In this document: positions 1 to 36,395 of the stretch, one piece after another
How the letters are laid out: each line of letters starts with the position of its first letter
Numbering within the stretch: the first letter of the stretch is position 1
IMG/VR virus record: IMGVR_UViG_3300037501_000255
From: a virus
Taxonomy: Duplodnaviria > Caudoviricetes
Strand: one strand, 5' to 3'
DNA length: 64,000 nucleotides
Made by a program: the position numbers and the translations under genes
Notes under the pieces: model-generated
Told to the model about the DNA's origin: nothing
Databases searched by the model: none
The model's input: the letters and a program-made list of their open reading frames with translations, nothing else

Positions 1-648
1 TTTATGAAATGAGTGTGCGCGGCCGTATTTTTTATTTATCAATCCAAGATTATATTTAGAATTAAGCAGCCCGGCGCCTAGAACTTCATAATCATTATTA
101 CCTATCTTGCTTAGGGCATCTCTATATATATCTCTATATAGAACATTGTCTTTTGAAGACATTAAAAATCCTACTGCATGTCCCAATATCTCATCAGCGG
201 CGGAATCTTGTCCGTAATAAAAAAATGTATCTATACAATTGTCATATTCTATTTTATTACACAGCATCTCTTCTATTGGTCTAATATATAAAATATCCAT
301 ATCTGACCACACACCTCCATAAGTATGCAGAAGATAATATCTTATTATATCAGACTTATGCACTTCGTTTATTGAATTTGATATGCCTATCGATTCACAA
401 TTGAATATTCTTATATCAACTCCGCAACTATGCAACTGCGGAGTGTAGTCTATTATATCGTTATTATTCTCATATTGTTTGTTGCCCCAGGTTGTCTGAG
501 AATTCAGACTGTGCGGAGTGTATACAACAATATTCCACTCTGGGTTTAACTTTTTAAATGATAATATCGATAGGAGTCTTAAAAATGACAGCCTGCGTGC
601 ACCCCAATAGAAATATATTGTTTTAGGTATTTGCGACAGCATCCACAT
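1..648 (-). CDS. DXD-motif glycosyltransferase (GT32/Gly_transf_sug-like), runs off the window edge
   Basis: Manual translation MWMLSQIPKTIYFYWG...EVHKSDIIRYYLLHTYGGVWSDMDILY. No stop before base 1. Paralog of 650-1483. Confidence 0.8.
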   Translation of the reverse strand, partial: MWMLSQIPKTIYFYWGARRLSFLRLLSILSFKKLNPEWNIVVYTPHSLNSQTTWGNKQYENNNDIIDYTPQLHSCGVDIRIFNCESIGISNSINEVHKSDIIRYYLLHTYGGVWSDMDILYIRPIEEMLCNKIEYDNCIDTFFYYGQDSAADEILGHAVGFLMSSKDNVLYRDIYRDALSKIGNNDYEVLGAGLLNSKYNLGLINKKYGRAHSFHK

Positions 649-649
649 A

Positions 650-1483
650 TTACACGCAACATAAATCTATAATAGTAGATAGCGCTGCATTTTTCGGAAT
701 GTTCCCGGGGCAACACCTCTCCTCATACGCAAGAGACAATTCGCTTCCACCATACCAGTGACATCCTATAGAACGGCTCATATCTATGGGTTTTGATAAA
801 AATAAATCTTTAATATTGGTAGGTAGTACCGGGTAAACCGAATATCTACTTATATTGCAAAGCTTTACTTGTGGAAATTTATCAATGATATCCGATAATT
901 TACGAAAGTATGTGTTTAACACTGTAGAGCCATGCGCCTGATATGCGCCCGCAGGAGCCTGCCTTGCCAATTGAAAGCAATTATTGAAAAACTCATTATT
1001 ACCAGATGAAAATAAAAATCCTATCGCATGCGCGCTTAATTCGGGATATATATGTATGCCAGTATTAGATGTGTGAGCCAATGGGTTTTCAATTACAATA
1101 TTATCAATGCTATTGGTATATACAATGTCCATATCAGACCACACTCCGCCATCCTCGGCGAGGAGCTTCCATCTAAGTAGGTCGGATTTGTGCACCTCAT
1201 GCATTTCATTGTCTATTCCATAATCTTCAAAATCATGTTCTATCACATTTGATACCGCACTGAGCGCTCGATCATAAAAGTTCTCGCGTATGAGTGGGGG
1301 GCGACTCTGTTCACCGGTTTTCCATGAAATATTGTTTCTGCTGGGGAATCTTGGAACATGTAAGTTTATTTCCCAGTTAGAATTAAACTTTTTCAAAGAA
1401 TGTATTGTCAAATATCTAAGGTAAGACATTTGTCTTGATGCAGATCCCCAATATAAATGAATTTTTTTAGGTATAATATTCAA
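650..1483 (-). CDS. DXD-motif glycosyltransferase (GT32-like)
   Basis: IPKKIHLYW, SDLLRWKLL..GGVWSDMDI, and a late HWYGG motif. Confidence 0.8.
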   Translation of the reverse strand: MNIIPKKIHLYWGSASRQMSYLRYLTIHSLKKFNSNWEINLHVPRFPSRNNISWKTGEQSRPPLIRENFYDRALSAVSNVIEHDFEDYGIDNEMHEVHKSDLLRWKLLAEDGGVWSDMDIVYTNSIDNIVIENPLAHTSNTGIHIYPELSAHAIGFLFSSGNNEFFNNCFQLARQAPAGAYQAHGSTVLNTYFRKLSDIIDKFPQVKLCNISRYSVYPVLPTNIKDLFLSKPIDMSRSIGCHWYGGSELSLAYEERCCPGNIPKNAALSTIIDLCCV

Positions 1484-2070
1484 GGAGCACCGTCGCTTCT
1501 AGAAGAAAACGATATGTTGAAATCATAATAATATAATATACGTTCAATTCTATGTTGACTTTTACAAGCATTGCTGGCCATTACCGCCCACTCAATATCT
1601 TCGCCATAATTTTTAGATGGAAACTTTATATCTTTAACGACATCTCGTTTAAAAATCATATTGTGGGATGGTTTGCCAGTCCAAAAACCGCGGCCCGTAT
1701 CATTTTCATTATACTCTAACTCGATACCGTATTTACAGTGTATTCTCTTACCAGAATGTACATGTGTGCAAATAATATCATACACTATCACATCCGCGCC
1801 ATTAGCATCGTCTATCGCTAGAAGCGCCTGCTCTATAAAATCTCCAACAACCCAATCATCATCATCCAGAAATACGATATATGATCCGGTAGCGGCGGCC
1901 AAGAGCGCATTTCTTTTATCGCCTATAGATAGAGACTTGTTGTCGTATAGGCATATGAGTTCAACACTATCTCTTCCATCAGCCTGTAACTCAAGGTAGT
2001 CCAACATCCTAGACATGAACGTTCTACGGCGAGCTGGTATAGATGGTATTAAAATTGACAATTTCTTCAT
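1480..2070 (-). CDS. GT2-family glycosyltransferase
   Basis: LSILIPS...KRNALL..ATGSYIVFLDDDD...YGEDIEW. Confidence 0.85.
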   Translation of the reverse strand: MKKLSILIPSIPARRRTFMSRMLDYLELQADGRDSVELICLYDNKSLSIGDKRNALLAAATGSYIVFLDDDDWVVGDFIEQALLAIDDANGADVIVYDIICTHVHSGKRIHCKYGIELEYNENDTGRGFWTGKPSHNMIFKRDVVKDIKFPSKNYGEDIEWAVMASNACKSQHRIERILYYYDFNISFSSRSDGAP

Positions 2071-3137
2071 ATATTCTCAGATATAGCTTCAATTATATGA
2101 TCTGACGTGCGGCCGTCACCAAGCCATTTCACCTTGCCTTTAAATCCTCTGCCATGAGAGTCGAGCCAAGTTACAGCCCTATTCGCCTGCTTTAAATAAT
2201 CATCTCTTTCTATATAAATCATCATGCTGCAATTATTGTCTACAGACTCTGGTCTTTCGGTGAAATCACGCGGAACCAGTACCGGTATTCCTAGCAGAGC
2301 AGATTCTTCTTGCGCACTGCCAGAATCTGAATATACAAATAGACTTTCTTGTTGAGCACGAATAAAATCTTTATATCCCATCAAATCTATAAATTCAATC
2401 CCATGCATATTAATTGCATTTAGATCTATGACAGACTTAGTTCTGGAAAAACTAAGCATCTTAACAGGCAAACTGTAATGTTTGCCTAACACTGCTGCTG
2501 TCTCCAATATTCTTGTAAGCCTAACTGCATGCTTGAAATTCTCCGGGCGATGAATGTCTAAGATTATATGTTTTGGGCTTGGTTTATATGACAGATCGGC
2601 TATATTAAGAAGGGGTTCTACTATGGTATTGCCAACCACATATATCGAGTCTTTTGCTATACCCTCCTTCATTGCCTTTTTCTTATAATTATTGTGATAA
2701 ACGAACAGCATATCTGAAACATGGTCGCAAGCCACGCGATTAGTTTCTTCAAGCATGACTTTGTGGTAAGAGCGCATTCCGGCTTCAATATGGGCTATTT
2801 TAAACCCCTCTTTATGAATTGGAATGGATGCCAGCACTGAATTGGAGTCTCCGAGGAATACTACCAGATCTGGCCTCAATTCAAGACACAGCTTAGTTGC
2901 TTTAACTGACAAATCAGCCACCTGCTCGTAATGGGGGCGGCCTGGGCTACCGGCTGACAGATTGAAGTCGGGCTCTCTGATATTCAAATCTTTAAAAAAG
3001 ACATCTGAAAGTTTTGGATCATAGTGCTGACCGGTGTGTACAAGTATGTGATTAAATCCGGCATCCAACTTGCGGAAAACTTCGGACATGCGGATAAAAT
3101 CTGGCCGTATCCCAGTTATTGTCATCACGGTTTTCAC
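2067..3137 (-). CDS. wecB: UDP-N-acetylglucosamine 2-epimerase
   Basis: TGIRPDFI, HTGQHYD, GDSNS, HIEAGMRS, EETNR, DSGSAQEE. Probable GTG start overlaps the upstream TAG. Confidence 0.9.
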   Translation of the reverse strand: MKTVMTITGIRPDFIRMSEVFRKLDAGFNHILVHTGQHYDPKLSDVFFKDLNIREPDFNLSAGSPGRPHYEQVADLSVKATKLCLELRPDLVVFLGDSNSVLASIPIHKEGFKIAHIEAGMRSYHKVMLEETNRVACDHVSDMLFVYHNNYKKKAMKEGIAKDSIYVVGNTIVEPLLNIADLSYKPSPKHIILDIHRPENFKHAVRLTRILETAAVLGKHYSLPVKMLSFSRTKSVIDLNAINMHGIEFIDLMGYKDFIRAQQESLFVYSDSGSAQEESALLGIPVLVPRDFTERPESVDNNCSMMIYIERDDYLKQANRAVTWLDSHGRGFKGKVKWLGDGRTSDHIIEAISENI

Positions 3138-3970
3138 TAGAACTCCTCTTTGATTGCAGATGCGCTGCCCCAGTCCCAACCAATATTTGCAACCGTAGCC
3201 CTTTCCTTAAGAGATAACCAAAGCGTCTGATTTGCATTGACTAGGTTTTCCTGGTAGCCCCGAGAGTGGCTGAGGTGGATGCCTGCTACCTGATCATTGA
3301 AAATAATTTGTATGCCATTACTGACGCAACAATGTGCAAAGAAATTGTCTTCATATGCAATCGAGCGCATAAATCCCTCTTCTACCCCGCCTATTTCAAA
3401 ATAATCAGATTTTCTAATAAATCCAAGGAAATAATTCTCATACTTCCATGGTCTTGATGGCACATCATCACGACACATGGCTCCATTACCAGGAACTCGG
3501 CATAGATCTTTTATTTTCTCGGTAGAAATCCCCCCAACCAATGTGCCAATCGCTGATACCGGCTTTTCATCAATCCAGCCCAAAACAAAGTGTTTTTCTT
3601 TGTTTTTGAATAAACGATTTACTACCTCCACATTCGTGCGTGAATTTATTACCTCAGGACTTGTAAGACATAGAATATCTCCAGATGCCATGCGGGCGCC
3701 TATATTCTGCGCCAATGCTGGGTTATAGGCGCCCCCATATTGCGATGGTGGGTGAGCCAGCGGGTGCGCTGCGGGGTCAATAAACAACAACCGCACCCTC
3801 ATTCCGCGCGCACGGCAGGCCCGTACAAGCTGCCGCAGAGGCTCGGTGTCGCCAAATGAATTATCTACTATAATAACCTCGAAATCTTTAGAGGATTGGG
3901 CTTCGAGCGTTTGCATGTTGGCCCTTAGCAACTCAACGCGATTTCTATGAGGAATTATATAACTAATCAT
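3137..3970 (-). CDS. GT2-family glycosyltransferase
   Basis: ISYIIPHRNR, FEVIIVDNS, NIGARMASGDIL, GGVEEGF..AYEDNFF. Confidence 0.8.
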   Translation of the reverse strand: MISYIIPHRNRVELLRANMQTLEAQSSKDFEVIIVDNSFGDTEPLRQLVRACRARGMRVRLLFIDPAAHPLAHPPSQYGGAYNPALAQNIGARMASGDILCLTSPEVINSRTNVEVVNRLFKNKEKHFVLGWIDEKPVSAIGTLVGGISTEKIKDLCRVPGNGAMCRDDVPSRPWKYENYFLGFIRKSDYFEIGGVEEGFMRSIAYEDNFFAHCCVSNGIQIIFNDQVAGIHLSHSRGYQENLVNANQTLWLSLKERATVANIGWDWGSASAIKEEF

Positions 3971-4647
3971 AATTTATATGCGAATGCTTCACAGATACCA
4001 GACTGATTCCATTTGTTGTGGATATACATGCTGTCGTGCATTGCAGGTCTATAATGCGTTCCGCCTTCGCGGCCTATATGATAACTACGAGATAGTGTTG
4101 GTGTTAAATTTGGGAGATTCTGTGCGGTCTGAAATGCCGTCATGCTCCAATCCCAGCCTCTCTTATCAACGTGATAATTTGGTGCAAAGTAATTGTCCCA
4201 CTGTGACTTGGTGGCTACAAAACTTAGGGCGTTAAAGCCCATTTTGGATATCACCACGCCGTCCTCGCCAGTACTATCTGGATTATACAAGTTTAAACAT
4301 AAATATTTATTTTTATCTTCAAGTGATAGATATGAGTCTATGAGCTTAGTGGCATCTGGAGACACCACCACATCATCTTCAAGCTGCCAAACCACATCTG
4401 CGCCCCAGTCAAACGCACGCTTTATGGTAGCAAATGGGTTTTCTTTGACCCCAAGTATTTTTGGATTCACAACCATATTCGTAGGAACAAAGTCTATATC
4501 CCTACATATTTTAATCACTTCTGCGGAGACGGGCTCTACTCCAATAAACAGAGTATAATCACTTATATCGTTCTTCTTTACAGATTCAAGGACCTGACAT
4601 AGGTATGCTGGGCGCTTGAAGGCAGTTATTGCCATAGCTTTCTTCAT
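3967..4647 (-). CDS. GT-A fold glycosyltransferase
   Basis: AFKRPAYL..VLESV, LEDD motif, GWD; lies inside the GT cluster. Confidence 0.7.
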   Translation of the reverse strand: MKKAMAITAFKRPAYLCQVLESVKKNDISDYTLFIGVEPVSAEVIKICRDIDFVPTNMVVNPKILGVKENPFATIKRAFDWGADVVWQLEDDVVVSPDATKLIDSYLSLEDKNKYLCLNLYNPDSTGEDGVVISKMGFNALSFVATKSQWDNYFAPNYHVDKRGWDWSMTAFQTAQNLPNLTPTLSRSYHIGREGGTHYRPAMHDSMYIHNKWNQSGICEAFAYKL

Positions 4648-5757
4648 ACGACCTCTTTTATGGCTTTTAGCATTTTAGCGCCAATATTAGACCATGAGTA
4701 TTTATCCAACCAATCCTGACTGGGCTGCGCGCGCTCACGGGCAACATTCTTGTCTTGGAAAACAGATCTCATTAGAATACGGAGATGATCTATGCTGGGC
4801 TCTGCCCATTGACCCCTATCCGTATATAGCGGCGAGTCCATACCACGAACCCGAGTTAGGGTGTAATCTATCAGATTTGAATTATCATAAGACATAAATT
4901 ATAAATTTCCAGAGTAACCGGTAGCAATTACTGGGGTGCCAACCGCCATCGCCTCTTGTATAGAATATCCCCATCCCTCAGCACGGTGCGGGGAAACCAA
5001 ACAATCCCCGCGTCGATGAAGCTCCCAAACCTCATCTCTAGACATCATTTTATGAAGAAGTACAATCTGCGGATGCGGTCCAACAGAGACTGAATTTTTA
5101 ATAGATAATATTTGCTGGCGTACCCAATCGCGATCATTAGAAGTTCCATCTAGCTTATATGTTTTAAGTACTAGAGCAACATCGTCCCGACCAGCAAATT
5201 AAGTTAAAAATGCCATTATAAGAGTCTGTGGATTTTTTCTTTCATTCCATTGAAATATGGAATAAAATATAAATTTATTTTCTGGTAAACATAGACTCTT
5301 ATCCAGACGCCCGCCATGAATTTCTGATGGATCAAGAGTGTGCTCTATCTTCTTAACCGGTACTTGAACGCCGCACTGTTTAAATATATCAACATTCCAC
5401 TCAGATGGAACCCATATCGCATCCATCTTATTGCATTTTTCAACCCAGCCATCAGGCAAGTGTGTAGTTTCCCATACAGTATAACCTATATTAGGAATGC
5501 CTTTAACAATAAAGCGGTCCCATAAATTTGGAACCATATGAACTATATTTAATTGTGGCGCTATTTTTTTTATCAAAATGATTTTTAAGACTATTGTAGA
5601 ATTTTGACTGATCTGTATTTATGGGCTCAAAATTTACCGACTTAATAGAGAAATCTATGTCGGCCCGCTGTGTCGCGAGAGCGGACAAATAACCTCTAGA
5701 TGCCTGAGAATACCCGGGAACTCCCAACGCGGCACATGAAAATTGCAGTCGTATCAT
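4644..5757 (-). pseudogene. GT4-family glycosyltransferase broken by a frameshift in an A8 run (5564-5571) and two in-frame TAA codons (5199-5201, 4899-4901)
   Basis: The pieces join collinearly with the intact paralog 6731-7855: GYTVWET, FYSIFQWNERKNP, AFLT*FAG..LKTY, RAEGWG, TGYSGNL*FM. Confidence 0.85.
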
Positions 5758-6746
5758 CCAGACCTCGGTAGAGAAAGATCGTATTCAAACATCTCTTTCA
5801 GGAGAGACTGCCATGTGTACTCAGGACTCCAGCCAATGTCACGAATCTTTGAAGAATCACCTTTCAAAAATGGAACATCGCTAGGTCGCATAAATCGCTC
5901 ATCAGCTTGATATACCTCTGCTGGATTAAGGTGGGCCAGGGAGCATACGTATTCCAGCATCTGTCTAATAGTCGCCCCATCTCCTGTAGCAACAACATAA
6001 TCATCGGGCATGGTTTGCTGTAACATCAGATGCATAGCTCTCACAAAATCTTTGCTGTGTCCCTCATCCCTGAAGGCTTCTAGATTTCCCATTAATATTT
6101 TCTTTGAGCGGCCAGTTACAATATCTGCCACACCTCTTGTTATTTTACGCGTAGCAAAATCAATTCCTCTACGTGTAGAGGAATGATTAAATAGGATTCC
6201 GCTACTGGCGTGCAATCCATATGCTTCACGATAATTTTTTGTGGCATGAAATGCAGCGAGCTTGGCTATAGCATATGGGCTACGCGGATTCAGTGGTGAA
6301 GATTCGTCAAAGCCAGCAGGTGGGCAGTTGAGGCCGCCAAACATCTCTGATGTTGACGCATTGTAAAATCTGGTATTTGGAGAAAAATGTCGTATCGCCT
6401 CTAATTGAATTATGACGGCTTCTGCATTTACTCTGAATGTTTCTATTGGTATTTTAAAAGAATATCCAACATGGCTTTGTGCTGCCAGTCCGTAGACTTC
6501 GTCCGGCTGCACATCTTTAAAGAGGGAGTTGATGAATCCTGCGTCGCAAATATCTCCCTCTAAGAGGCGGAGATTGGGGTGTCCATAGGCATCACCGAGG
6601 TTGCTGAAATCGTTGCCCGAACTAACTCTTTTATATAGTCCGGTTACCTGATAGTCTAGTGATAGCAGATACTCAGCTAGAAAGCTCCCGTCCTGGCCGA
6701 GCACTCCTGTGATTATAGCTTTTTTCACTTTCACTTCTCCTTCCAT
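5754..6746 (-). CDS. gmd: GDP-mannose 4,6-dehydratase
   Basis: KAIITGVLGQDGSFLAEYLL, LAAQSHVGYSF, YNASTSEMFG, SPYAIAK, GILFNH. Confidence 0.95.
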   Translation of the reverse strand: MEGEVKVKKAIITGVLGQDGSFLAEYLLSLDYQVTGLYKRVSSGNDFSNLGDAYGHPNLRLLEGDICDAGFINSLFKDVQPDEVYGLAAQSHVGYSFKIPIETFRVNAEAVIIQLEAIRHFSPNTRFYNASTSEMFGGLNCPPAGFDESSPLNPRSPYAIAKLAAFHATKNYREAYGLHASSGILFNHSSTRRGIDFATRKITRGVADIVTGRSKKILMGNLEAFRDEGHSKDFVRAMHLMLQQTMPDDYVVATGDGATIRQMLEYVCSLAHLNPAEVYQADERFMRPSDVPFLKGDSSKIRDIGWSPEYTWQSLLKEMFEYDLSLPRSG

Positions 6747-7855
6747 GACTTATACAGCGCTTCCAGGGTATTTTTCAGAGCAGCAAGCTGCTTGTCCCAA
6801 TTCAGTCGCCGCAGTAGATCTCCTCTGGCCGCGGCTGCCACTGCGCGAGCATCATCCTGATTTTTGTAAACATACAGCATTCTGTCTGCTAGCTGATCTA
6901 TATTGGGCTGTGCCCACCGCATATCGCCCGTATACCATCCGCCCAGATGCCTCATGTTAAATACAGGCTCGAGTTGATAGTCAATAAGATAGGAATTTTG
7001 ATCTGTCATGAACTCTAGGTTTCCGGAATACCTGGTACCGATAGTTGGGTTGCCTATCATCATTGATTCAATATATGGTAGACCGAGCCCCTCTGCTCTA
7101 GTAGGTAATACAAAGCAGTCGTGAGAGACATGCAGGTCTGTAATCAGCTGATCTGTGAGTTTTCCGTATTTCATAGTTATGAGCGGAGGGGAGCCTCCTT
7201 CAACAGAATCGCGGATAGCTAAAATTTCCTTGCGAAGAAAGTCCTCCTCCTCTTTTGAGTAGTTTTTTAGATATGTCTTTAGCGTCAGCGATACATTGCT
7301 ATTGCCCGCAAAAGCTGCTGTAAATGCTCTAATCAGTGCTGCTGGATTTTTACGTTCTGACCATTGAAAAATAGAGTAAAACTTGAAGTCTGGCTTCATG
7401 CCAATCCTTTGACGCTTGGCTGGATATAATTCCGGATCGATTCCCGGCACAGCAACCTCAACTGGTACGTTGACACCTGATGAAATAAATACTTCTTTGT
7501 TCCACTGACAAGGAACCAGGATGGCATCCATCTGGTTGCATTGCTGCACCCAGATTGGAGGTATCTTAGATGTCTCAAACATCGTAAAACCTATATTTAG
7601 AGCTCCTGGCTTTTTAAAGTTCTGATATACTTTTGGTATCATATTGATGATATTTATCTCAGGAGCTCTCACTCCTTTAGACAACATTGTGTTACATATA
7701 TCCCCATATGTGCCATGAGAAGCGTGTACCTGCTCAAAGCTAATTGGCTCCAGAGTTACATCCCATCCGGCACGGTACATCGCCACCGCCCAATTTCTAG
7801 CAAATTGCGCATAACCCGAGGAGTCCCTAAATGCTCCTACAAAATTTATCTTCAT
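6731..7855 (-). CDS. GT4-family glycosyltransferase
   Basis: SGYAQFAR, GFTMFET, RKNPAALIRAF, PTRAEGLGLPYIESM..G.PTIGT.YSG. Confidence 0.85.
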   Translation of the reverse strand: MKINFVGAFRDSSGYAQFARNWAVAMYRAGWDVTLEPISFEQVHASHGTYGDICNTMLSKGVRAPEINIINMIPKVYQNFKKPGALNIGFTMFETSKIPPIWVQQCNQMDAILVPCQWNKEVFISSGVNVPVEVAVPGIDPELYPAKRQRIGMKPDFKFYSIFQWSERKNPAALIRAFTAAFAGNSNVSLTLKTYLKNYSKEEEDFLRKEILAIRDSVEGGSPPLITMKYGKLTDQLITDLHVSHDCFVLPTRAEGLGLPYIESMMIGNPTIGTRYSGNLEFMTDQNSYLIDYQLEPVFNMRHLGGWYTGDMRWAQPNIDQLADRMLYVYKNQDDARAVAAAARGDLLRRLNWDKQLAALKNTLEALYKSWKEK

Positions 7856-8841
7856 TTCGCCGCCTCAATAATCTTGTGTGATGGCGCCGTTTTCTTAATA
7901 GCCTTCTTGGGCAAAATCAGCGCCGTAGCGGCCATCGCCAGAAGCCCAAAAAGTACGCCTCCGCTGCCGCTCGATTGCAGTTCGGTTTGTTCTTGAGGTA
8001 ATTCCTCTATCTCGGAAGCTGGCTCGGCTGCAGTCGCATCAGATAGGGCAGAGTGTAGCCATGCCTCAATTGCACTGGACAGCATTGCTGCAGACTTCTC
8101 ATAGGTAGCCATGGTAGTCTTGGATATCTCCTCTAGCCCGGCAATGTAGACATCGATTGATGGCAAATCGCGCACTTTGAATATCCGAAGGATGTTCCGT
8201 GCCGACAGTCCCCCAAGCATCATTAGAGTCTGCACGCGACCCGAGCATACTGATTGCGGTTCTATACGTATCAATTCAGCATACACGTCATACTCCATTG
8301 TTCCAATGGCACCTATGCAATCCCCCGCCTTATTGAAGCAGTATATTTCACCATTTTTAGTGAATGAAATAAGTGGTCCCATCTGTTTCCATGCATCATA
8401 TTCGCTCTCTGACAGCTTGATTCCGGAAAGATAATAAAGCCCCGTGTGCTGTGGCGATGTGTGCGAGACGGCTGGCCCATCAGTCCTATGTAGAACCCCA
8501 TGTCTGTACCACAATTCCTGTCCATCCTCCCTTATTACTGCAGGCATGCCTTCCGCGTGTCTGACGTTATCTTTGAAGAGCGAGAGTACCGAAATCCCTC
8601 CATCATCGGATCTTGTAGGATAAAGACCTTGACTGGTGCACAGTAACCACTGCTGCTTGGTTAGATTTATACCGTTGATATAGTATGCTAGGCTGGTGGC
8701 ATCGACCGACGCTGGGCCACTCAAGTTGTGGAGCTGATGCGTGGCTCGACTTCTTACTTCCCAGGCGGTTATCCCGCTTTGATCTTGTGAAGATGGGGTG
8801 GCATCAGCATCAATACTTACTAGTGGGCATGGTATAGCCAT
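7852..8841 (-). CDS. Hypothetical protein with HRxDGPA repeat and hydrophobic C-terminal tail
   Basis: WYRHGVLHRTDGPAV...YYLSG; C-terminal GGVLFGLLAMAATALILPKK. Confidence 0.6.
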   Translation of the reverse strand: MAIPCPLVSIDADATPSSQDQSGITAWEVRSRATHQLHNLSGPASVDATSLAYYINGINLTKQQWLLCTSQGLYPTRSDDGGISVLSLFKDNVRHAEGMPAVIREDGQELWYRHGVLHRTDGPAVSHTSPQHTGLYYLSGIKLSESEYDAWKQMGPLISFTKNGEIYCFNKAGDCIGAIGTMEYDVYAELIRIEPQSVCSGRVQTLMMLGGLSARNILRIFKVRDLPSIDVYIAGLEEISKTTMATYEKSAAMLSSAIEAWLHSALSDATAAEPASEIEELPQEQTELQSSGSGGVLFGLLAMAATALILPKKAIKKTAPSHKIIEAAK

Positions 8842-15260: not shown

Positions 15261-16028
15261 TCAGCTAAAGTCAGGATCTGAATATGCATTTTCTGCAGCA
15301 GGACTAGCGAATATTACCCGACATTTGTCGCACATGTCCGGATCGTCTCGGTAGCATATTCCTATCCATTTGCCAGTAAGGACATTGTACATTTTTTGAT
15401 ACTTCTTAGAGGATCGGACGAGTTGTGGGTGTTCCTTGTGCTCTGCCTGATTTAGCAGGAATTCCTCATTCCTGACGTTATTTCGTGTCTTGACCAGGAC
15501 GTTTAGCGTAACACTCTCGCCACCTTGCGGATTCTGCGTTCGCTGTATAGACGCGATGAGTGGGACGCGATCAAGCGTATCCGAGTCTGTCACGCTCCAG
15601 CGCTCAGGCAAGCACTCTTCGAATGCCGCCATAAGTGCCGCATCTAGCGATGCCTCAGGGCCTGCCCACAGATTAGGAGGGCAGGCCCTGAATACCGCTG
15701 CGTGTGTTTCGTTAAATGCGGCCATTGACAGCACACCGTCCGCCACACTACGTCCCGACACCTGCTCGAAGGACAGGTGCGGATGTAGACCGCGCGGCGT
15801 CGGCAGCAGCCGTACACAGCAAATATTTCTGTGTACGGCTCTATCACTTTCCTCCATTTGATACCAGGCCGTCAGCACCACTGGCACAGCATACTTGGTA
15901 AGAAAGTACTTCCTCGCTAACGCCGCAGATTGCGTTCTGGCAATAAGAAGCATTTCTGCTGGTGAGAAGTCGGAGACGAGAGTGCGCTTTTCGGAAAAAA
16001 TAAGTGGAGTCATTACAGCCCCTGTCAC
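15261..16028 (-). CDS. Hypothetical protein directly downstream of the E1 gene
   Basis: Its start overlaps the ThiF stop. Confidence 0.6.
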   Translation of the reverse strand: MTGAVMTPLIFSEKRTLVSDFSPAEMLLIARTQSAALARKYFLTKYAVPVVLTAWYQMEESDRAVHRNICCVRLLPTPRGLHPHLSFEQVSGRSVADGVLSMAAFNETHAAVFRACPPNLWAGPEASLDAALMAAFEECLPERWSVTDSDTLDRVPLIASIQRTQNPQGGESVTLNVLVKTRNNVRNEEFLLNQAEHKEHPQLVRSSKKYQKMYNVLTGKWIGICYRDDPDMCDKCRVIFASPAAENAYSDPDFS

Positions 16029-16876
16029 TTAGGTAGACGCAGTGCGAGCCCCAGCTTGGACCACGATTCCAACGAGGACTTCGTCAGCGGCCTTTGCGAG
16101 AACTTATTTTTGATTGAAAATTCAACCATGTATGTGGATATGGGATTTCCGCTTAGCAGATCATACACGAAGTTGAGTGCAAAAGTGGCCGCATTAAGGT
16201 TGACGAATCCGAATTGATTTGAGGACTCTGCCATCTCAGCACAACTGAGTTCGCTAGCCAGCTTATCTGTCTTAGCTCGCTCGACTAGCTCGGGGAATAC
16301 TTCGAACAGATGCGGGGTGCGATACACCCCGGTGCTGGGCTCCATTGCTGATGTTATGCAGGTGAGGAGCACCTGGCCGGCCACATCTTCATTGCCACAG
16401 TCAATGATATAACCGCCATTTGGGTAATATAGCTGAAGGGCCTCGACCATAAACTTCCGGGCTTTGATATTGTCAACGCACGAAATGATGAGTGGCGTAG
16501 AATTACCATAGTTTATGTTGTTGACCTGCGCATTGCGGAGGGCTGTTTTGATAGAGTTTGCGGATTCTAGATACTGCGGCAGGAATTGTATCTGCGTACC
16601 AAATGCAGTTGAATATCTCCTGGCCAGAGCCTCAGCCTTGTTTTTACCAACATCAGACTTGATAAAGTTCTGGCGTATAAGATTCTTTGGCTCTACCGTA
16701 TCTGCATCTGCAAGTGTCAAACAGACTGGCTGCCTGCTGTTAAGCAGCAAACGAACTAGATTTGGGATGACGTAACTGCCCGTGCCTCCGCAGCCTATAA
16801 CTAGTACATTTTGTATATTTGTCAGCGGCTTGAGCGGATACAGGGGTTCGATCGTGAGTGTTTTTGTCTGTGCCAT
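16025..16876 (-). CDS. ThiF/E1-like activating enzyme (PRTRC-type)
   Basis: VIGCGGTGS, DADTVEPKNLIRQNF, GKNKAEALA.RY, SCVDNIKAR, IDCGNE...GQV, ELSCAE (candidate catalytic Cys). Confidence 0.9.
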   Translation of the reverse strand: MAQTKTLTIEPLYPLKPLTNIQNVLVIGCGGTGSYVIPNLVRLLLNSRQPVCLTLADADTVEPKNLIRQNFIKSDVGKNKAEALARRYSTAFGTQIQFLPQYLESANSIKTALRNAQVNNINYGNSTPLIISCVDNIKARKFMVEALQLYYPNGGYIIDCGNEDVAGQVLLTCITSAMEPSTGVYRTPHLFEVFPELVERAKTDKLASELSCAEMAESSNQFGFVNLNAATFALNFVYDLLSGNPISTYMVEFSIKNKFSQRPLTKSSLESWSKLGLALRLPK

Positions 16877-16887
16877 GCTACATTGCC

Positions 16888-18048
16888 TCACTCATTCAGG
16901 AATGGGTCTGATGGAAGTTCGTCTGTCTCGGCAGCGTCTGCAACTTCTGGAAGGAGCGCCACTATCGTCTCTTCGTGGCCCGCCTCGAGAAGAGATCCAA
17001 TCAGGTCGGCAACGTCATCATCAGTCATGGCGTCGACCAATTTGTCGAACAGTCTCTGCTTCTGTACTCTTGTCATTTCAACTCCTCCGATAGAAAGGCG
17101 CGCGGTGGTGCTTTTAATCAGATCAATCAGTAGTTCGTCATCATCAGCGTCTACGTCTGACGACGCTGCGCTCCGCTGAAAAAAGGGGTGGTCCGCCGCC
17201 GCACCTCCCATTCTCCTACGAGCATCGCTTATTGCGAATTCAAGCTCGGTTTCAATGTCCAGTTGTGTGGGGCGAGATCTGTGCGTCATCGCCGCACGTT
17301 CATTGCCCAGCGACGTACTTTCAGACGAAGAAGTGGTTCTGACAGGAGCTGTTGGATATTTAGTAATCCTGCTTTTCCAATCGCCAGGAAAGGCGACCTC
17401 CGGCTCCTCCTCAAAGATATCTTCGCGTTTAATAATCACCCGCTTGCCTCCACACACAAAGGAGAAGAGCGTGGCAGGTGAGGACTGATTTAACTTACCG
17501 ATAACACCAAAAAATCTGTCACTCTTCTCATCAGCATTGTCTGTTCCAGAGAAAAAAGCATCCATTGTGTTGTGGGAGTGAGTCTCTAGAACAAGGTGGC
17601 ACCGCGCTTCAAGTTCCGTATCTCTCTCGAAATTGACTGAAGCGCCGCTAACTCGTTGGGCCGGGACATGGTTGAAGTACCGCTTCTCAACGGGGTCCCA
17701 AAATGTTTGGACGTACGCCTCATCCTTGCTCTCGTCGCAGATGGATTTAAAAAAAGCAAGTATTTCTTTGAAGAGGGCTAGCGGTATCTTGCCGAAGTGG
17801 CTCCGGCCATACTCTACATTTTGCTCTTCAGGAAATCCAGGAAGTGGGTTTGCGAATTTCTCCCTCTGGATAACAAAAATGCCTGCCCTGGACTTCCGTA
17901 GTTCCCAGACGCCATCGCGTCTGACAATGTAGTTTACCGGCTTCTCTACATTGGAAATGTCGGGCCAAGCCGCGTCCGTGAGGAATCCGGTATTCTGACG
18001 AGCCAGAAACGTTTTCAGATCTAGTTTAGGCTGAGATGATTCAGTCAT
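16888..18048 (-). CDS. JAB/MPN metalloprotease (PRTRC protein A-like) with acidic C-terminal extension
   Basis: JAMM motif E...ETHSHNTMDAFFSGTDNADE followed by FFGVIGKL. Confidence 0.88.
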   Translation of the reverse strand: MTESSQPKLDLKTFLARQNTGFLTDAAWPDISNVEKPVNYIVRRDGVWELRKSRAGIFVIQREKFANPLPGFPEEQNVEYGRSHFGKIPLALFKEILAFFKSICDESKDEAYVQTFWDPVEKRYFNHVPAQRVSGASVNFERDTELEARCHLVLETHSHNTMDAFFSGTDNADEKSDRFFGVIGKLNQSSPATLFSFVCGGKRVIIKREDIFEEEPEVAFPGDWKSRITKYPTAPVRTTSSSESTSLGNERAAMTHRSRPTQLDIETELEFAISDARRRMGGAAADHPFFQRSAASSDVDADDDELLIDLIKSTTARLSIGGVEMTRVQKQRLFDKLVDAMTDDDVADLIGSLLEAGHEETIVALLPEVADAAETDELPSDPFLNE

Positions 18049-18051
18049 TCG

Positions 18052-18771
18052 TCACTCTCCGTGCTTGAATATGGTTTTGATTGCTGTATCAAAATTCTTA
18101 TATTCTCGACTGTGAGGAAGCAGCCACTCGGTGTCGAATGGGTGCTCAGTCAGATATTTGAGATAGCTCTGAGCTACTGACTCGTTATCTCTACTCACCT
18201 GCGCCCATGGGAACTTTGAGTTTAGGCACGAGGTCTGGAATAGGTCATCATTGAATGGGGCCGTGAAGAATCTCCGCACCGCGCCATTTAGTGCAGCTAA
18301 CGATTTAAAGTTCTTGATCGCCTCTTCGTTTTGCCCCCAGCAAATTCTAGCATCTGGGAATACATTTGGTGTAGGGTAACTGTACAGCCCATCAATACCA
18401 AGCATAATGTTATTCTGCTTCATTGCAAAGATGTATGAATTGCTCACGAAATAGTGATCATTCGCCTTTGTGAGGATGAAGAGGAATAGAGCCGGAGGCA
18501 GGTTGGCTTTGCCCACGGCGTCAGCGGCGCGACCGCGCGAAGAGAATGATACATCATACGTGCTGGCTGGGCGCTCTACCGCTATGTGCGTCTGATCTCC
18601 TTTGACGCCAAGGTATCGCGTGCCGATGGGCAGGAATCCAATGTCAAATGCGACATTGGTGGACAGCACCTTGACTAGATCGGTCAGGTCTATTCCCTTG
18701 ACCTGCTTGTTGCCAGTAGGATCTGTGTACGTGAGGGTCGTTCCCGATTCAACAATATTTACGTCTAACAT
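18052..18771 (-). CDS. Prokaryotic E2-like protein (Prok-E2 family D / PRTRC protein B-like)
   Basis: NLPPALF, LYSYPTPNVFPDARICWG, FFTAPFNDD; sits between the JAB and Ubl genes. Confidence 0.75.
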   Translation of the reverse strand: MLDVNIVESGTTLTYTDPTGNKQVKGIDLTDLVKVLSTNVAFDIGFLPIGTRYLGVKGDQTHIAVERPASTYDVSFSSRGRAADAVGKANLPPALFLFILTKANDHYFVSNSYIFAMKQNNIMLGIDGLYSYPTPNVFPDARICWGQNEEAIKNFKSLAALNGAVRRFFTAPFNDDLFQTSCLNSKFPWAQVSRDNESVAQSYLKYLTEHPFDTEWLLPHSREYKNFDTAIKTIFKHGE

Positions 18772-18774
18772 TTT

Positions 18775-19638
18775 TCACCATCCAAAAAGTGTGTCTGTGG
18801 AGATTGTCATTTGCTGACGCTCGTCAGTTGCTATAACGGGACTAACATCGTATGTCAGCTGATTTGGGGCATCCATTATTTCATTAATGGTCATTGTGCG
18901 GCGGCGGCGAATTTCTTCCAACCTTTCTCTAGCTATCCGCTGGGCTCTAGCGCTATCAGTCTCTTCAAGAGAGACGGCTGTAGGCTGATTCTTTACAACA
19001 GTTACCAGAATATTCGCCCTGCCAGCAATTACCTCGCGGCGCTGCTCTTCGGAAAGAGAAGAGTGTGCGAGAATCAGGGCGCGCATGACGAGAAGCTTGG
19101 CTGCCAGGATCTTGTTGAAATCTTCTTGCTCGCGCTCTAAATTGCAGAATGGCGCAGTCTTAAATGCCGGGATTAGAAATTCCAGAGCTGTGTTACCTGA
19201 GCGTCCATCTTCGTGTGTGAATGGTGATACGCCGCCGGCAAGCTCCATAGCAGTCGCGAGATCGGGTGATTGGCGAGAGAAATTGAGTGCTCCTACAATT
19301 GCCGCTGCAATGTTATAGTCTATGCCGTCCGCCACGAGCCTACCACCCAACCCGCGAACCAAGATCTTAGGAGACCAGCTTACCGATAAGCCTGGCGTTT
19401 TTGCAATTTGCTTGTCAACAGCAAAGCGCAAATTCTCTATGAAGTGCTTTGAGTTGAAAGCTATGAAAGATTTCATGACTTCATTCACAGCCTCCGGCTT
19501 TGAGAAGTCCAGCGTTGAAATCTCGCTATATCTAGTTGACGTGGGGCGCCGAGATCTGCGCCCAAGCACGAGACTTTGCTCTACAACAAAGACGTGATTT
19601 AGAAGGGAGGCTGCAAGTTGCTCTCTGAGCTTTGACAT
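18775..19638 (-). CDS. Hypothetical protein inside the Ubl cassette
   Basis: Tightly packed operon gene, 287 aa. Confidence 0.6.
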   Translation of the reverse strand: MSKLREQLAASLLNHVFVVEQSLVLGRRSRRPTSTRYSEISTLDFSKPEAVNEVMKSFIAFNSKHFIENLRFAVDKQIAKTPGLSVSWSPKILVRGLGGRLVADGIDYNIAAAIVGALNFSRQSPDLATAMELAGGVSPFTHEDGRSGNTALEFLIPAFKTAPFCNLEREQEDFNKILAAKLLVMRALILAHSSLSEEQRREVIAGRANILVTVVKNQPTAVSLEETDSARAQRIARERLEEIRRRRTMTINEIMDAPNQLTYDVSPVIATDERQQMTISTDTLFGW

Positions 19639-19644
19639 GTGACC

Positions 19645-19920
19645 TCAGATGAAGTCTGAGTTGAGACTTACAGTCTTCAACCTCAGGAAAACGCCTTTGC
19701 ACTCTCGCGCGCTAAACCTCGCGCTAAGCATATCTTTGGCGGTACAGTTCTGGAATATCGTATCAATATCTTCCTGGGAGAGGGCTCTGCGAGCCTGAAT
19801 TAGCTTCTCCAGCGAAGAGCATGAGAGTATGGCTGTGATGTTATCTGAATGGCGCTTAAATGTCTCGCCGAAGAACTTGTCGATGATTTGCTTTTGAATT
19901 TCAGGAATATTCATCTTCAT
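19645..19920 (-). CDS. Hypothetical protein inside the Ubl cassette
   Basis: ORF with probable start MKMNIPE. Confidence 0.5.
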   Translation of the reverse strand: MKMNIPEIQKQIIDKFFGETFKRHSDNITAILSCSSLEKLIQARRALSQEDIDTIFQNCTAKDMLSARFSARECKGVFLRLKTVSLNSDFI

Positions 19921-19983
19921 CCCAAAAATAACGGTGGGGACATCAGCGAGTGACATCCCCACCGTTATGGTGCGGCTTATAGC

Positions 19984-20169
19984 TCAACCCTTGGTTCCGG
20001 CCTTCTCGGAGAACTCCCAAGTGGTGGAGCCATCGGCATTTTGCACGCGATTCACCTGCGCGTGCATGATGGCGGGCGCCTGCTCTGAAAGAGCAGCGCG
20101 GATTTCCCCTTCGGTGTGACCCGGAGGGAGGTGGTAAGTGACGCCCTGGAAAATAACGGTGTCCTGCAT
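19984..20169 (-). CDS. Ubiquitin-like protein, copy 1 (PRTRC protein C-like)
   Basis: 61 aa ending FSEKAGTKG; upstream SD GGAG. Confidence 0.8.
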   Translation of the reverse strand: MQDTVIFQGVTYHLPPGHTEGEIRAALSEQAPAIMHAQVNRVQNADGSTTWEFSEKAGTKG

Positions 20170-20302
20170 TGTATACTCCTACAGTGGTGTATATGTGTTT
20201 TACCCGCCTCAGCACCACAACAGAGTCGGATATTTGTGAAAATCAACCCTTGGTTCCGGCCTTCTCGGAGAACTCCCAAGTGGTGGAGCCATCGGCATTT
20301 TG
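19984..20302. repeat. Exact 60-bp direct repeat (19984-20043 and 20243-20302)
   Basis: TCAACCCTTGGTTCCGGCC...CGGCATTTTG is identical in both Ubl genes. Confidence 0.95.
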
Positions 20303-20434
20303 AAACTTATTTAGAGTTGCATGCAGAATAGCGGGGGCTTGTTCTGAGAGGGCTGCGCGAATCTCGCCTTCCGTGTGACCGGCGGGAAGATTATACGTAA
20401 CCCCTTGAAATAGTACTGTATCCATGTGCTTCAA
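20243..20434 (-). CDS. Ubiquitin-like protein, copy 2
   Basis: 63 aa paralog with the same C-terminus FSEKAGTKG. Confidence 0.8.
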   Translation of the reverse strand: MKHMDTVLFQGVTYNLPAGHTEGEIRAALSEQAPAILHATLNKFQNADGSTTWEFSEKAGTKG

Positions 20435-20652
20435 TCCTTGTCTTTAAGTTGTTTCCTGGAGCGCTTGAGGACAACAATGTCCAGCTCCTCGGGGTCACCA
20501 TCTTCGACGGGAACCTCCACTACCGAGACACGCTTCTTGCTGACGCGCGCCTTCTCGCCCGAGAAAAGGGTGCCGAGCTTTCTTGAAGCTAGAACACCTA
20601 CGGCTGCGCCACCGGCAGCAGCTACACCAAGTAATTTCAATAATCCGGTCAT
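20431..20652 (-). CDS. Small membrane-anchored protein
   Basis: LLKLLGVAAAGGAAVGVL; SD AAGGAG. Confidence 0.65.
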   Translation of the reverse strand: MTGLLKLLGVAAAGGAAVGVLASRKLGTLFSGEKARVSKKRVSVVEVPVEDGDPEELDIVVLKRSRKQLKDKD

Positions 20653-27161: not shown

Positions 27162-27386
27162 CTATTTGACCCTGTAAACAATTCTACCACGATTCAAATC
27201 GTATGGCGAGACTTCGATATGGACCCTGTCGCCTGGAACAATTTTAATTGAGTTCAGTCGCATTTTTCCTGATGGAGTACAGGTCACCACATGTGACCCA
27301 TTTTTAGTCTCTACTTCTACTCTAAACATATCCTTGCAGAAGTCTAGAACAATACCTTCGAACTCAATTTTATCTGAATCAGCCAC
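27162..27386 (-). CDS. infA: Translation initiation factor IF-1
   Basis: IEFEGIV...MFRVE...[34 protein letters not shown]. Confidence 0.93.
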
Positions 27387-33474: not shown

Positions 33475-33990
33475 TTAAGACTTCTTATCATGTTTAGACC
33501 TCACTATGACGAAAATTTCTCTGCGCTCGGATGTTAGACTTGTTTCTGTTACTGACATTTCTTTAATTTCTGCCAGTATAGAATCCAAGAGTTTTATTCC
33601 AAGATCTTGGTGAGCATTTTCGCGTCCGTGAAATTTAATAACTATTTTAACCTTGCATCCGTCTGTAAGAAATTCTTTAATCTTGCCCAACTTAACGTCG
33701 AGGTCGTGTTTCTCGATGTTAACGCCTAGCTTAACTTCTTTAAGAACCACCACATGCTGCTTCTTCCTAGCTTCCTTCTCTGCCTGCTTTTGACGATACT
33801 TGAAGCGGCCGTGGTCCATAATTTTTGCCACGGGCGGTTTCGCCTGCGGTGAGATATTGACTAGGTCAAGTCCTTTCTCGTTTGCAATTCTGATGGCATC
33901 CTGAAGTTTGTAAATTCCGAGCTGCGGTCCGTCTTCAATAGTAAGACGAACCTCGTAATTATGCCTGGGGTTGAAACCAATTAGTGCCAC
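33475..33990 (-). CDS. infC: Translation initiation factor IF-3
   Basis: EVRL...QLGI...A...GLDLV.ISPQAKPPVAKIMD.G.FKY, KEVKL, HDLDVK, GRE.AH. Confidence 0.95.
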   Translation of the reverse strand: MALIGFNPRHNYEVRLTIEDGPQLGIYKLQDAIRIANEKGLDLVNISPQAKPPVAKIMDHGRFKYRQKQAEKEARKKQHVVVLKEVKLGVNIEKHDLDVKLGKIKEFLTDGCKVKIVIKFHGRENAHQDLGIKLLDSILAEIKEMSVTETSLTSERREIFVIVRSKHDKKS

Positions 33991-34376: not shown

Positions 34377-34886
34377 TTAAAAGCTAAGTCCAGCGACACG
34401 CTCGTCCGGCCTCCCGCGAAACTCCCAGTGCCACGGTTCATTTCTCATTGGTCGAGAGAAGCCGTATTCGTGGGCGTGGAGTCTCAGCCATCGACACACC
34501 TTGGTCTCAAAGCGCTTTCTCCCAACCCGCTTGGTGCAACCAGCAACATCAATTGCGCGCCCCTCTTGGTGGGGGCTTAATCCTGGGGGACTTGCCAACC
34601 GACGGTTTTTTCTAAAAAGGGAGATCTGCTGTTCCATTGTCCTGTGTGCGTAATTCAATCTGATATCTACTCCGGAGGCGGCCATATCCAAACGCATTTG
34701 AATAAATGCTTCCGCGGCTTCCCTCTCTAAAACTAAGGGCTTGCCATCACCGTCACTCCCGCCAAGGTGAATCACCTCAAGTACTATTGGCGTGCCATGA
34801 GAGCACCCTTCGACATATCGATATTGTAATGTCTCTGTAGGTGCTGGATGCACGTATAACTGTAACAGTAGAAGAGCTACATTCAT
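34377..34886 (-). CDS. M15B/VanY-like peptidoglycan peptidase (possible endolysin)
   Basis: RTMEQQ..LF, PPGLSPHQEGRAID, EPWHWEF. Confidence 0.85.
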   Translation of the reverse strand: MNVALLLLQLYVHPAPTETLQYRYVEGCSHGTPIVLEVIHLGGSDGDGKPLVLEREAAEAFIQMRLDMAASGVDIRLNYAHRTMEQQISLFRKNRRLASPPGLSPHQEGRAIDVAGCTKRVGRKRFETKVCRWLRLHAHEYGFSRPMRNEPWHWEFRGRPDERVAGLSF

Positions 34887-35272
34887 AGAAGACTCAGTCC
34901 GCCAGTTATCTTATCTATTTCTATAGATAGGGCGGGGCCTACCGCACAGCAGGTATAGGTCGGCTCTTTAAATTCAGTTCTGCCCTGATCCAGTATCAGG
35001 GAAGTGTGCAGCTTAGCTGCCTGCGCTGCTTTGTATATTTTGAAGAGCTCTTCTTCGCTACTGCAGCCTACAACAATCTTAGTCGCTCCAGCCTTGAGCC
35101 ATTCAATGTCTGGTGGCTCGAGCGATATACTTACGTACCTATCGGCGCCGTTGACGGAATCTAAGAATGAGTTTAATACCGCATGGGCTACCTGCGCAGC
35201 AAGTTTGCCCTTCCTCATATTCAGATCTTTTCTTACAACAATAACTTGCTTATAAGCATATGGCGCATGCAT
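34883..35272 (-). CDS. pth2: Peptidyl-tRNA hydrolase type 2
   Basis: KQVIVVRKDLNMRKGKLAAQVAHA, DQGRTEF, TCCAVGP, IDKITG.L.LL. Confidence 0.93.
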   Translation of the reverse strand: MHAPYAYKQVIVVRKDLNMRKGKLAAQVAHAVLNSFLDSVNGADRYVSISLEPPDIEWLKAGATKIVVGCSSEEELFKIYKAAQAAKLHTSLILDQGRTEFKEPTYTCCAVGPALSIEIDKITGGLSLL

Positions 35273-35796: not shown

Positions 35797-35886
35797 TGGC
35801 GGAGAGAGGGGGATTCGAACCTCCACCACCCTTTCGGGAGGCTGGTTTAGCAAACCAGTGTAGCGCTCCAACTCTACCGTCTCTCC
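35797..35886 (-). tRNA. tRNA-Ser(GCU)
   Basis: GGAGAGA/TCTCTCC acceptor, CTGGT-TTGCTAA-ACCAG, long variable arm, GTTCGAATCC, G73-CCA. Confidence 0.9.
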
Positions 35887-35891
35887 ATATC

Positions 35892-35980
35892 TGGCGGAAA
35901 CTGTGAGAATCGAACTCACGAAGGCGGTTGGGCCCCAGCCGCTTTCAAGGCGGTTTCCTCGTCCATGCCGGTCAACTTCC
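35892..35980 (-). tRNA. tRNA-Ser(UGA)
   Basis: CCGC-CTTGAAA-GCGG anticodon arm, long variable arm, GTGAG-TTCGATT-CTCAC, G-CCA. Confidence 0.85.
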
Positions 35981-35983
35981 GTG

Positions 35984-36076
35984 TGGCGGATGAGGGGAGG
36001 CTCGAACTCCCGTGACCCTTTAGAGGTCAACTACCTTTCCAGGGTAGCCCAGCAACCCGACATCTGGCTCCCATCC
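35984..36076 (-). tRNA. tRNA-Ser(GGA)
   Basis: CTACC-CTGGAAA-GGTAG, variable hairpin, GGGAG-TTCGAGC-CTCCC, G-CCA. Confidence 0.88.
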
Positions 36077-36080
36077 ATAC

Positions 36081-36287
36081 CTACGCTACACTAACGAATC
36101 TTGGCACCTGCTTGCCGTCGACTTCAACCAATTGCTCCCACATTTATATCGGCCTAATCCAGATCTGGCGCTCACCATATTCGGCTTGATATACAACCAT
36201 TTCTTGAAGAGTTTCTGAACTCTTTCCCACGGCCAGGAGCGTATATAATCTACCTGATTTACTGTGTCGCCACTGTCCTAACTTCAT
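36081..36287 (-). pseudogene. DUF1653-like small protein with an in-frame TAA at 36144-36146
   Basis: MKLGQWRHSKSGRLYTLLAVGKSSETLQEMVVYQAEYGERQIWIRPI*MWEQLVEVDGKQVPRF. Confidence 0.75.
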
Positions 36288-36300
36288 TGTTTTTTCACCT

Positions 36301-36395
36301 TGGAGGAAGCGCCGAGGCTCGAACTCGGGCCAGCCGTTTGAGCTGGAGTAGTTTTCGAAACTACTGGGGCAAAGCCAACATCCCGCCTCGCTTCC
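36301..36395 (-). tRNA. tRNA-Ser(CGA), discriminator U instead of G
   Basis: GGAAGCG/CGCTTCC, GTAGT-TTCGAAA-ACTAC, long variable arm, T-CCA. Confidence 0.82.

Follow-up and report, generated by a model that had tools for sequence, protein, structure and literature searches.

The window, by which we mean the whole stretch of 64,000 nucleotides of viral DNA analysed here, contains two genes for ubiquitin-like proteins (Ubls) that lie head to tail, both on the minus strand. The upstream paralogue (20243..20425) encodes 60 aa and the downstream paralogue (19984..20169) encodes 61 aa, and both products end in AGTKG. The upstream gene starts 5 nt past a conserved orphan gene of 73 aa (20431..20652, minus strand), which lies directly upstream of the pair, and the downstream gene has its own Shine-Dalgarno sequence and a structured leader. 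A preliminary description of this DNA had let the pair extend to 20434; the start of the upstream gene is most likely the ATG at 20425, giving 60 aa, and not the TTG at 20434, the former being preferred because it is called as the start in all relatives. Since the upstream Ubl protein is recorded on a contig of 367,953 bp, and the window contains nine tRNA genes and densely packed, co-oriented genes, the carrier is likely a jumbo phage.

On the 3' side of the pair, the minus strand continues with a conserved orphan of 89 aa (19645..19914; the ORF reaches 19962 from a GTG), to which profile search assigned no family, and a conserved orphan of 287 aa (18775..19638). These are followed by an E2-like protein of the Prok-E2_D family (18052..18771, minus strand; PF14460, 34.7 bits against a cut-off of 25, E 1.9e-8) with its Cys in ICWG, a JAB/JAMM peptidase with a JAB-N-like N-terminal region (16888..18048, minus strand; PF14464, 28 bits against a cut-off of 25; TIGR03735, E 2e-14), in whose sequence the HxH-x7-S-x2-D motif is present, and a ThiF-family E1 (16025..16876, minus strand; PF00899, 64.2 bits; TIGR03736, 125 bits) with a P-loop and a conserved Cys, C212, that is invariant in the alignment. 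The Ubls score below the cut-offs of their own families (PF14454, 13.7 bits against 25; TIGR03738, 20.6 and 13.1 bits against 45.95), and 15 of 22 Ubl homologues match TIGR03738 weakly. By these matches, the Ubl pair appears to head a cassette of E2, JAB and E1 that resembles Iyer class 6d and PRTRC, with all PRTRC models (TIGR03735-TIGR03738) scoring below their cut-offs and no PRTRC ParB-related gene or protein E matched in the ten ORFs scanned or among the Pfam domains listed for related loci. Related E1 proteins are found in phages Edson and KLEB27-3 and in several Vibrio, Salmonella, Ralstonia and Acinetobacter phages.

Class 6d operons were predicted by Iyer, Burroughs and Aravind in 2006 (PMC1779556), and the likeness lies in a beta-grasp protein ending in Gly, an unknown protein, a family-D E2 with its Cys, a JAB and a ThiF-type E1, all in the same order. 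The present locus differs in having two separate Ubl genes, an extra 89-aa gene and a probable jumbo phage as carrier. The 287-aa orphan holds the place of the helical protein of class 6d but shows no detectable homology to it, and searches for family, atlas and pairwise matches returned none. Among searchable papers we found no demonstration of class 6d conjugation and none on what class 6d or PRTRC systems tag; likewise, no study of phage-borne cassettes of this kind or of conversion of their tails was found in a literature of which most subscription papers were outside reach.

The bacterial Bil and Bub ubiquitination systems conjugate a Ubl to proteins (10.1101/2023.09.04.556158; 10.1101/2024.11.21.623953). 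They share the parts E1, E2, JAB and Ubl with the window cassette and illustrate that such cassettes can be active, but they are host defence or stress operons whereas the window cassette is phage-borne. By analogy with the Bil and Bub work, the phage cassette may well conjugate its Ubls: one E1 probably activates both, passing them to the E2 Cys and on to target proteins from which the JAB would remove them, as expected from knowledge of these families. Membership in Bub (6E/DUF6527) was considered and rejected. Bub has an E1 and E2 without catalytic Cys and a DUF6527 gene, whereas the window cassette keeps both Cys (C212 of the E1 is invariant and the E2 Cys is present), and the Pfam scan of the cassette ORFs gave no DUF6527 match. 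We also folded the Ubl together with the E1 as a dimer. In the calibration of this score, the mark was reached in 58 of the 80 solved complexes tried and in 2 of the 110 mismatched pairs; a pass at 0.60 or less was seen in only 7 of the 80 and in both of these mismatches. The Ubl-E1 pair scored 0.44 with the best control at 0.00, the runs agreeing on at least 75% of contacts with a partner pLDDT of at least 78, which hints at a pairing of Ubl and E1, although such a pass could stem from resemblance to E1-Ubl complexes of solved structure.

The same type of cassette occurs at gp211-gp216 of a cultured 230-kb Bacillus phage, WH1 (vB_BceM_WH1, LC597490.1), with matches to the window at E 1e-14 for the E2 and 6e-25 for the JAB and with an E1 that is 37.5% identical. 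In WH1, the Ubls form one five-unit gene, gp211 (L033:829-1728; its record calls it only a 'virion structural protein' and leaves the class 6d cassette that it heads unannotated), whereas the window has two separate genes. Our Ubl profile matches the WH1 poly-Ubl unit (hhalign 95.9%), the units end in AGTKG, and gp211 passes PF14454. As WH1 is cultured and has the same cassette, the pathway is open to bench testing. Two further arrangements were noted: an unrelated viral contig (L001:5270-5740) carries a Ubl ending in AGTKG fused to a C-terminal extension, from which the JAB presumably releases it, followed by an unknown gene, E2-like and JAB-like genes and an E1, and the 570-aa protein P0017 has an internal Ubl-like domain (residues 241-297) without a terminal GTKG.

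In the predicted model of the Ubl (pLDDT 84.6), strands span residues 3-7, 10-14, 38-43 and 49-54 and a helix spans 20-28, with a loop at 44-48 and a tail at 55-61. Structure comparison matched this model to MoaD (Z 5.4, rmsd 2.6 over 57) and Fubi (Z 5.1, rmsd 2.5 over 57), and the match list consists mostly of beta-grasp folds, all with middling Z; searches by sequence found no solved structure, and Foldseek gave no match at E 0.001 or better. The model suggests that the Ubl is a small stand-alone minimal beta-grasp protein. At its end, G58, K60 and G61 (GxKG) are invariant in 22 homologues.

The preliminary description had reported that the last 20 codons of the two genes are alike base for base, and this is exact. 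Positions 19984..20043 of the downstream copy equal positions 20243..20302 of the upstream copy, both on the minus strand and 259 bp apart as a direct repeat, over 60 bp that comprise codons 43-61 and the TGA; with the copies aligned from the stop codon, the identity ends at the stop. The tract thus runs from codon 43 to the stop and encodes the loop, the last beta-strand and the C-terminal tail, and it is the sole exact direct repeat of at least 16 bp in the 64-kb window. In the 120 bp 5' of it, 42 positions differ between the copies, and among the 40 codons concerned the difference is silent in 25 and alters the residue in 8, the remaining 7 being the same in both copies, so the earlier statement that the upstream codons diverge mostly at silent sites is borne out, as is the codon example it quoted. 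It had proposed comparing dS on the two sides of the boundary, and by Nei-Gojobori the pair gives pS 1.01 and pN 0.128 on the 5' side, where silent sites are saturated, and pS 0 and pN 0 in the tract, in which none of 12.7 silent sites differs (95% upper bound 0.21). In permutation tests over polymorphic sites and over codons capable of silent change, 0 of 5000 shuffles reached the identical run. The probability that 18 of 18 codons are identical is 7.5e-5 at the per-codon identity of unconverted paralogue tails (0.59) and 1.4e-3 at that of the most constrained orthologue tails (0.69). WH1 offers a comparison, as its repeats are near-identical as protein and yet their silent sites have diverged to leave at most 14 nt identical in a row among repeats 2-5 and at most 17 among all five, so protein identity alone does not yield DNA identity. 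We consider that the tract was almost certainly made by recombination.

A repeat of this kind could also arise in assembly, if the assembler joined two strain variants or merged two similar tails. One of the Hainich groundwater replicate assemblies of a relative does break at the repeat (which holds the end of L024 and the start of L019), but the two tails, there on separate contigs, are still identical and such a break is what a true exact repeat causes, and the other replicate (L025) spans both copies. Contig L004 (JGI 3300043267), a second assembly, reproduces the two copies; along 8079 bp it departs from the window at a single base, 23249, well away from the two genes. These two sequences are possibly not entirely independent of each other. 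The same layout recurs in five further lineages, in four of which the copies share at most 23 nt in a row, so that the tandem there cannot be an assembler join, and tails that differ at 9-20 sites would leave almost no common k-mers to merge. This comparative evidence argues strongly against misassembly of the pair, which the preliminary description had named as its refuter, and we regard an artefact as highly improbable.

Our sample comprises six two-copy lineages, represented by the window and L004, L025, L031, L026 and L030, L005, and L028, whose branching order is poorly resolved (bootstrap 38-65% on inner nodes). The spacer between the copies measures 70-79 bp in four of the five other lineages and 103 bp in one. 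Flanking DNA in these lineages is only about 50-69% identical to that of the window and neighbour genes have pS 0.6-0.9 between lineages, pointing to an old duplication, one that predates the split of phage lineages whose neighbour genes are saturated at silent sites. This comparison leads us to reject a recent duplication with fast 5' divergence, as the pair arose before the lineages did and the copies differ silently in their 5' part. L028 stands apart, as its copies are each other's nearest relatives (93-95% support) and differ at only 4 residues, suggesting a separate duplication or an old whole-gene conversion.

Over the 60 positions of the tail, the paralogues differ at 0 in the window, 1 in L025 (in the stop codon only), 10 in L031, 9 in L026, 20 in L005 and 10 in L028. 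L025, from Hainich groundwater, therefore has an identical tract of its own, of 58 bp, and it begins at the first base of codon 43 as in the window. Between the window and L025 the tracts differ at six silent sites, at each of which the two copies within either phage agree. This agreement within each phage rules out one ancestral event, each lineage having been converted after the split, so that the tail was converted independently twice; as flank trees leave the sister status of the window and L025 undecided, the independence rests on the six silent sites. Trees from the two parts of the gene disagree accordingly: in the 5' tree most downstream copies cluster (82%), whereas in the tail tree the copies of the window and of L025 pair by genome. 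The suggestion of recent gene conversion or recombination in the preliminary description is thus upheld by lineage-private silent changes present in both copies, by the disagreement of the trees and by a second case, and the comparison of breakpoints and copy number that it had proposed yields the shared codon 43 together with single-copy, two-copy and apparently chimeric relatives. Codon bias and protein constraint as the sole cause were rejected, as some of the lineage-specific bases that the two copies have in common lie in A/T-ending codons and no long tract exists among the repeats of WH1. A diversity-generating retroelement was rejected as well: the differences are not adenine-specific, the tract has none at all, both copies are coding, and a crude motif scan of the 64-kb window gave no reverse transcriptase. 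Shorter identity patches in the L026 and L005 pairs (20-23 nt) are not significant on silent codons (p 0.45 and 0.21), and older conversions there are only suggested. Searches that reach close relatives only returned no Ubl relatives from viral and genome contig collections or, by single-sequence tblastn, from cultured phages.

As for direction, the upstream tail of the window is 2 changes from the downstream tail of L031 versus 12 from its upstream tail, and the upstream tail of L025 is 4 and 11 changes from them, respectively. Unconverted upstream copies (L031, L026, L005) have Gln56, whereas both converted ones have Lys56, the downstream type, and the GC3 of the upstream gene in the window rises from 0.38 to 0.68 at the boundary, which is the level of the downstream gene. 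These comparisons indicate a transfer of the tail mainly from the downstream to the upstream copy; two bases of the L025 tract (47.3 and 48.3) are those of upstream-type copies, and transfer in that lineage may therefore have gone both ways.

The 5' edge of the tract lies at codons 38-42, the predicted third beta-strand (20303..20317 in the upstream copy, minus strand), where the two copies disagree at 10 of 15 nt (20044-20058 in the downstream copy). When the five close two-copy lineages were compared in 15-nt blocks, codons 38-42 differed at 10-12 bases, the other 5' blocks at 1-7 and the last block at 0-1, so the tract begins at the block of greatest similarity and extends to that of least similarity. 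We consider it reasonably likely that the tract reflects a near-neutral conversion, limited by homology, in which the downstream copy served as template for the upstream tail. On this reading the two genes are old tandem paralogues of the Ubl tag in a class 6d (PRTRC-like) conjugation cassette of a phage. Protein constraint and codon bias keep their 3' third most alike, with a near-invariant end of 12-20 bp. Phage recombination would start in this 3' island and copy mainly from the downstream to the upstream gene, either as a patch conversion or through a duplication and a subsequent deletion, routes that would end in the same sequence. The tract would end at the stop codon, where homology ceases, and at the mismatch-rich codons 38-42, and 10-12 mismatches in 15 positions could produce the same boundary twice with no special mechanism. 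The outcome would be close to neutral, as the AGTKG end was present in both proteins beforehand and the conversion altered no more than about 1-3 residues. T4 amplifies and deletes sequence through microhomologies of 6-10 bp (tifA, PMC9391042). This process and the intragenic gene conversion or concerted evolution of tandem paralogues resemble the present case in that a short stretch of homology between adjacent genes leads to transfer of sequence and to gain or loss of copies, with tracts that end at mismatch blocks. The present case differs from both in that it is inferred from natural genomes, concerns a tract of only 58-60 bp and recurs at the same boundary. The proposed mechanism is ordinary gene conversion. 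For phage genomes it would be a clean, repeated short-tract case, with the same boundary in two lineages.

The preliminary description had proposed that the conjugation tail was homogenised while the N-terminal surface varies. The tail does lie in the tract, but the tract also takes in the hairpin loop and the last core beta-strand. The real protein divergence of the window pair lies in the five residues 38-42 (pN 0.65), while codons 3-37 differ mostly silently (pN 0.05, pS 1.05). Across all pairs, codons 3-37 have pN 0.04-0.09 against pS 0.5-1.05 and are under purifying selection, and in the model the third beta-strand is the only strongly divergent surface. The two types of copy evolve at different rates, with p-distances of 0.17 among upstream versus 0.05 among downstream copies at residues 3-37 (about 3-fold) and 0.57 versus 0.10 at residues 38-42, the upstream gene being the faster-evolving copy and the downstream gene the conserved one. 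Such rates are what would be expected if the N-terminal surface were diversifying to escape host deconjugases with the tail held fixed, as had also been put forward. However, there is no signal of positive selection, codons 3-37 being constrained in all pairs, tails that were not homogenised are maintained in four of the six lineages with two copies, and the cassette itself encodes a JAB. Deconjugases as a rule recognise the C-terminal tail of a Ubl, and it is this tail that is invariant here; no host enzyme of this kind is known. We therefore give the escape reading very little credence.

Selection could still have shaped the outcome. If the copies are two distinct Ubl tags, with different readers or functions as is possible, their tails would have to track one shared E1, E2 and JAB, and conversions that reached the third beta-strand would be purged. 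Against the near-neutral view, two of six lineages share the boundary and both keep type-specific residues in this strand, and selection would give the same picture. In five lineages Leu39 is found in all upstream copies versus Val39 in the downstream copies, with Phe/His42 versus Val/Leu42 and Asn/Gln13 versus His13; both tracts stop exactly at the end of the strand; the copies have different expression signals; and residues 38, 40 and 42 would face the solvent by the hairpin register of the Ubl model. However, four of the six two-copy lineages persist with unconverted tails, three of them with Gln56, several relatives (L011, the P0005 locus, L034 and probably L029) have one copy, the upstream copies vary among themselves at 38-42, which fits relaxed constraint equally well, and the L028 copies differ hardly at all. 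We consider selected partial conversion rather unlikely. In its fullest form, this clade of jumbo phages would use a two-tag code on one E1, E2 and JAB, in which a pseudoknot-like leader would control translation of the conserved tag, and the other tag, translated directly after the gene upstream of it, would expose a different surface on its third beta-strand, conversion keeping the enzyme-facing end matched and selection protecting five residues that choose partners or targets; this, too, is a speculative proposal that we would not expect to hold. On the near-neutral reading, the copies differ in expression signals and in the third beta-strand, and the upstream copy is probably a dosage copy or a partly specialised one.

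Copy number varies among the relatives. A single Ubl gene, located past an intergenic gap, is present in L011-L018, at the P0005 locus and in the distant L034. The Ubl of L029 (L029:1688-1870), a probable single copy on a sequence that ends 47 bases past it, starts like an upstream copy and lacks a leader, but its end is of the downstream type and its 3' flank is downstream-like, which is the chimera expected from a deletion between the copies. Such flux raises the question of whether the 60-bp repeats, which flank a 259-bp unit of leader and downstream gene, let this unit expand and contract to tune the Ubl dose, the identical tail being the trace; every product would be an intact gene, and assembly may hide copy-number variants. 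The geometry of the repeats fits, as do the existence of one-copy, two-copy and apparently chimeric relatives, the five-unit poly-Ubl of WH1 and homologues with 2-5 units, the downstream gene, whose low pS and high GC3 suggest high expression, and the T4 precedent (PMC9391042). However, none of the loci found has more than two separate copies, and two is also the number in L004 and in the Hainich assembly that spans the pair. Sequence alone fails to separate this route from patch conversion, and nothing shows an adaptive value. We hold dose tuning to be improbable. Whichever reading applies, this clade amounts to a natural experiment, in which a tag of 60 residues occurs singly, in pairs, as a chimera and with a converted tail, and which singles out residues 38-42 and 56.

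The leader of the downstream gene occupies the 73-bp spacer (20170..20242, minus strand) and forms a hairpin at 20201-20232 with the loop GTGGTG at 20213-20218, which is complementary to CACCAC (20184-20189), located 3 nt before the AGGAG ribosome site. It is conserved in six other lineages (L025:485-559, L031:3280-3353, L026:3959-4028, L005:6184-6262, L011:5923-6000, L028:375-440). Across the seven lineages the hairpin has 8-15 bp (z -1.4 to -5.1) and a stem sequence different in each, the GTGGTG loop is invariant, and the complementary hexamer lies 3-5 nt before the ribosome site. The leader could possibly form a pseudoknot and act as a translational control element; the second helix, between loop and hexamer, shows no covariation, and the leader matches no Rfam family. 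Directly 3' of the downstream Ubl, a hairpin with 18-bp arms (19928..19968, minus strand; z -7.67) resembles a terminator or stabiliser, and relatives have a hairpin-like sequence of different letters at this place. The terminator scan does not call it, and no sigma-70 promoter or terminator signal above chance was detected. With this hairpin, Ubl mRNA may exceed enzyme mRNA. The pS of the downstream Ubl between lineages, 0.41-0.56, is below that of the neighbour genes, which suggests codon selection for high expression.

Elsewhere in the window, four tRNA-Ser genes lie in a row (GCT, TGA, GGA, CGA; 35797-36390), and genes that look by eye like IF-1 (27162-27386), IF-3 (33475-33990) and peptidyl-tRNA hydrolase 2 (34883-35272) were noted. 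A 535-aa RNA-binding protein (37732-39339; PHROG 850) is one that we take to be TROVE/Ro60-like. A cluster of glycosyltransferase-like and sugar-nucleotide genes fills positions 1-8841, where the GC content is lower (37-45%).
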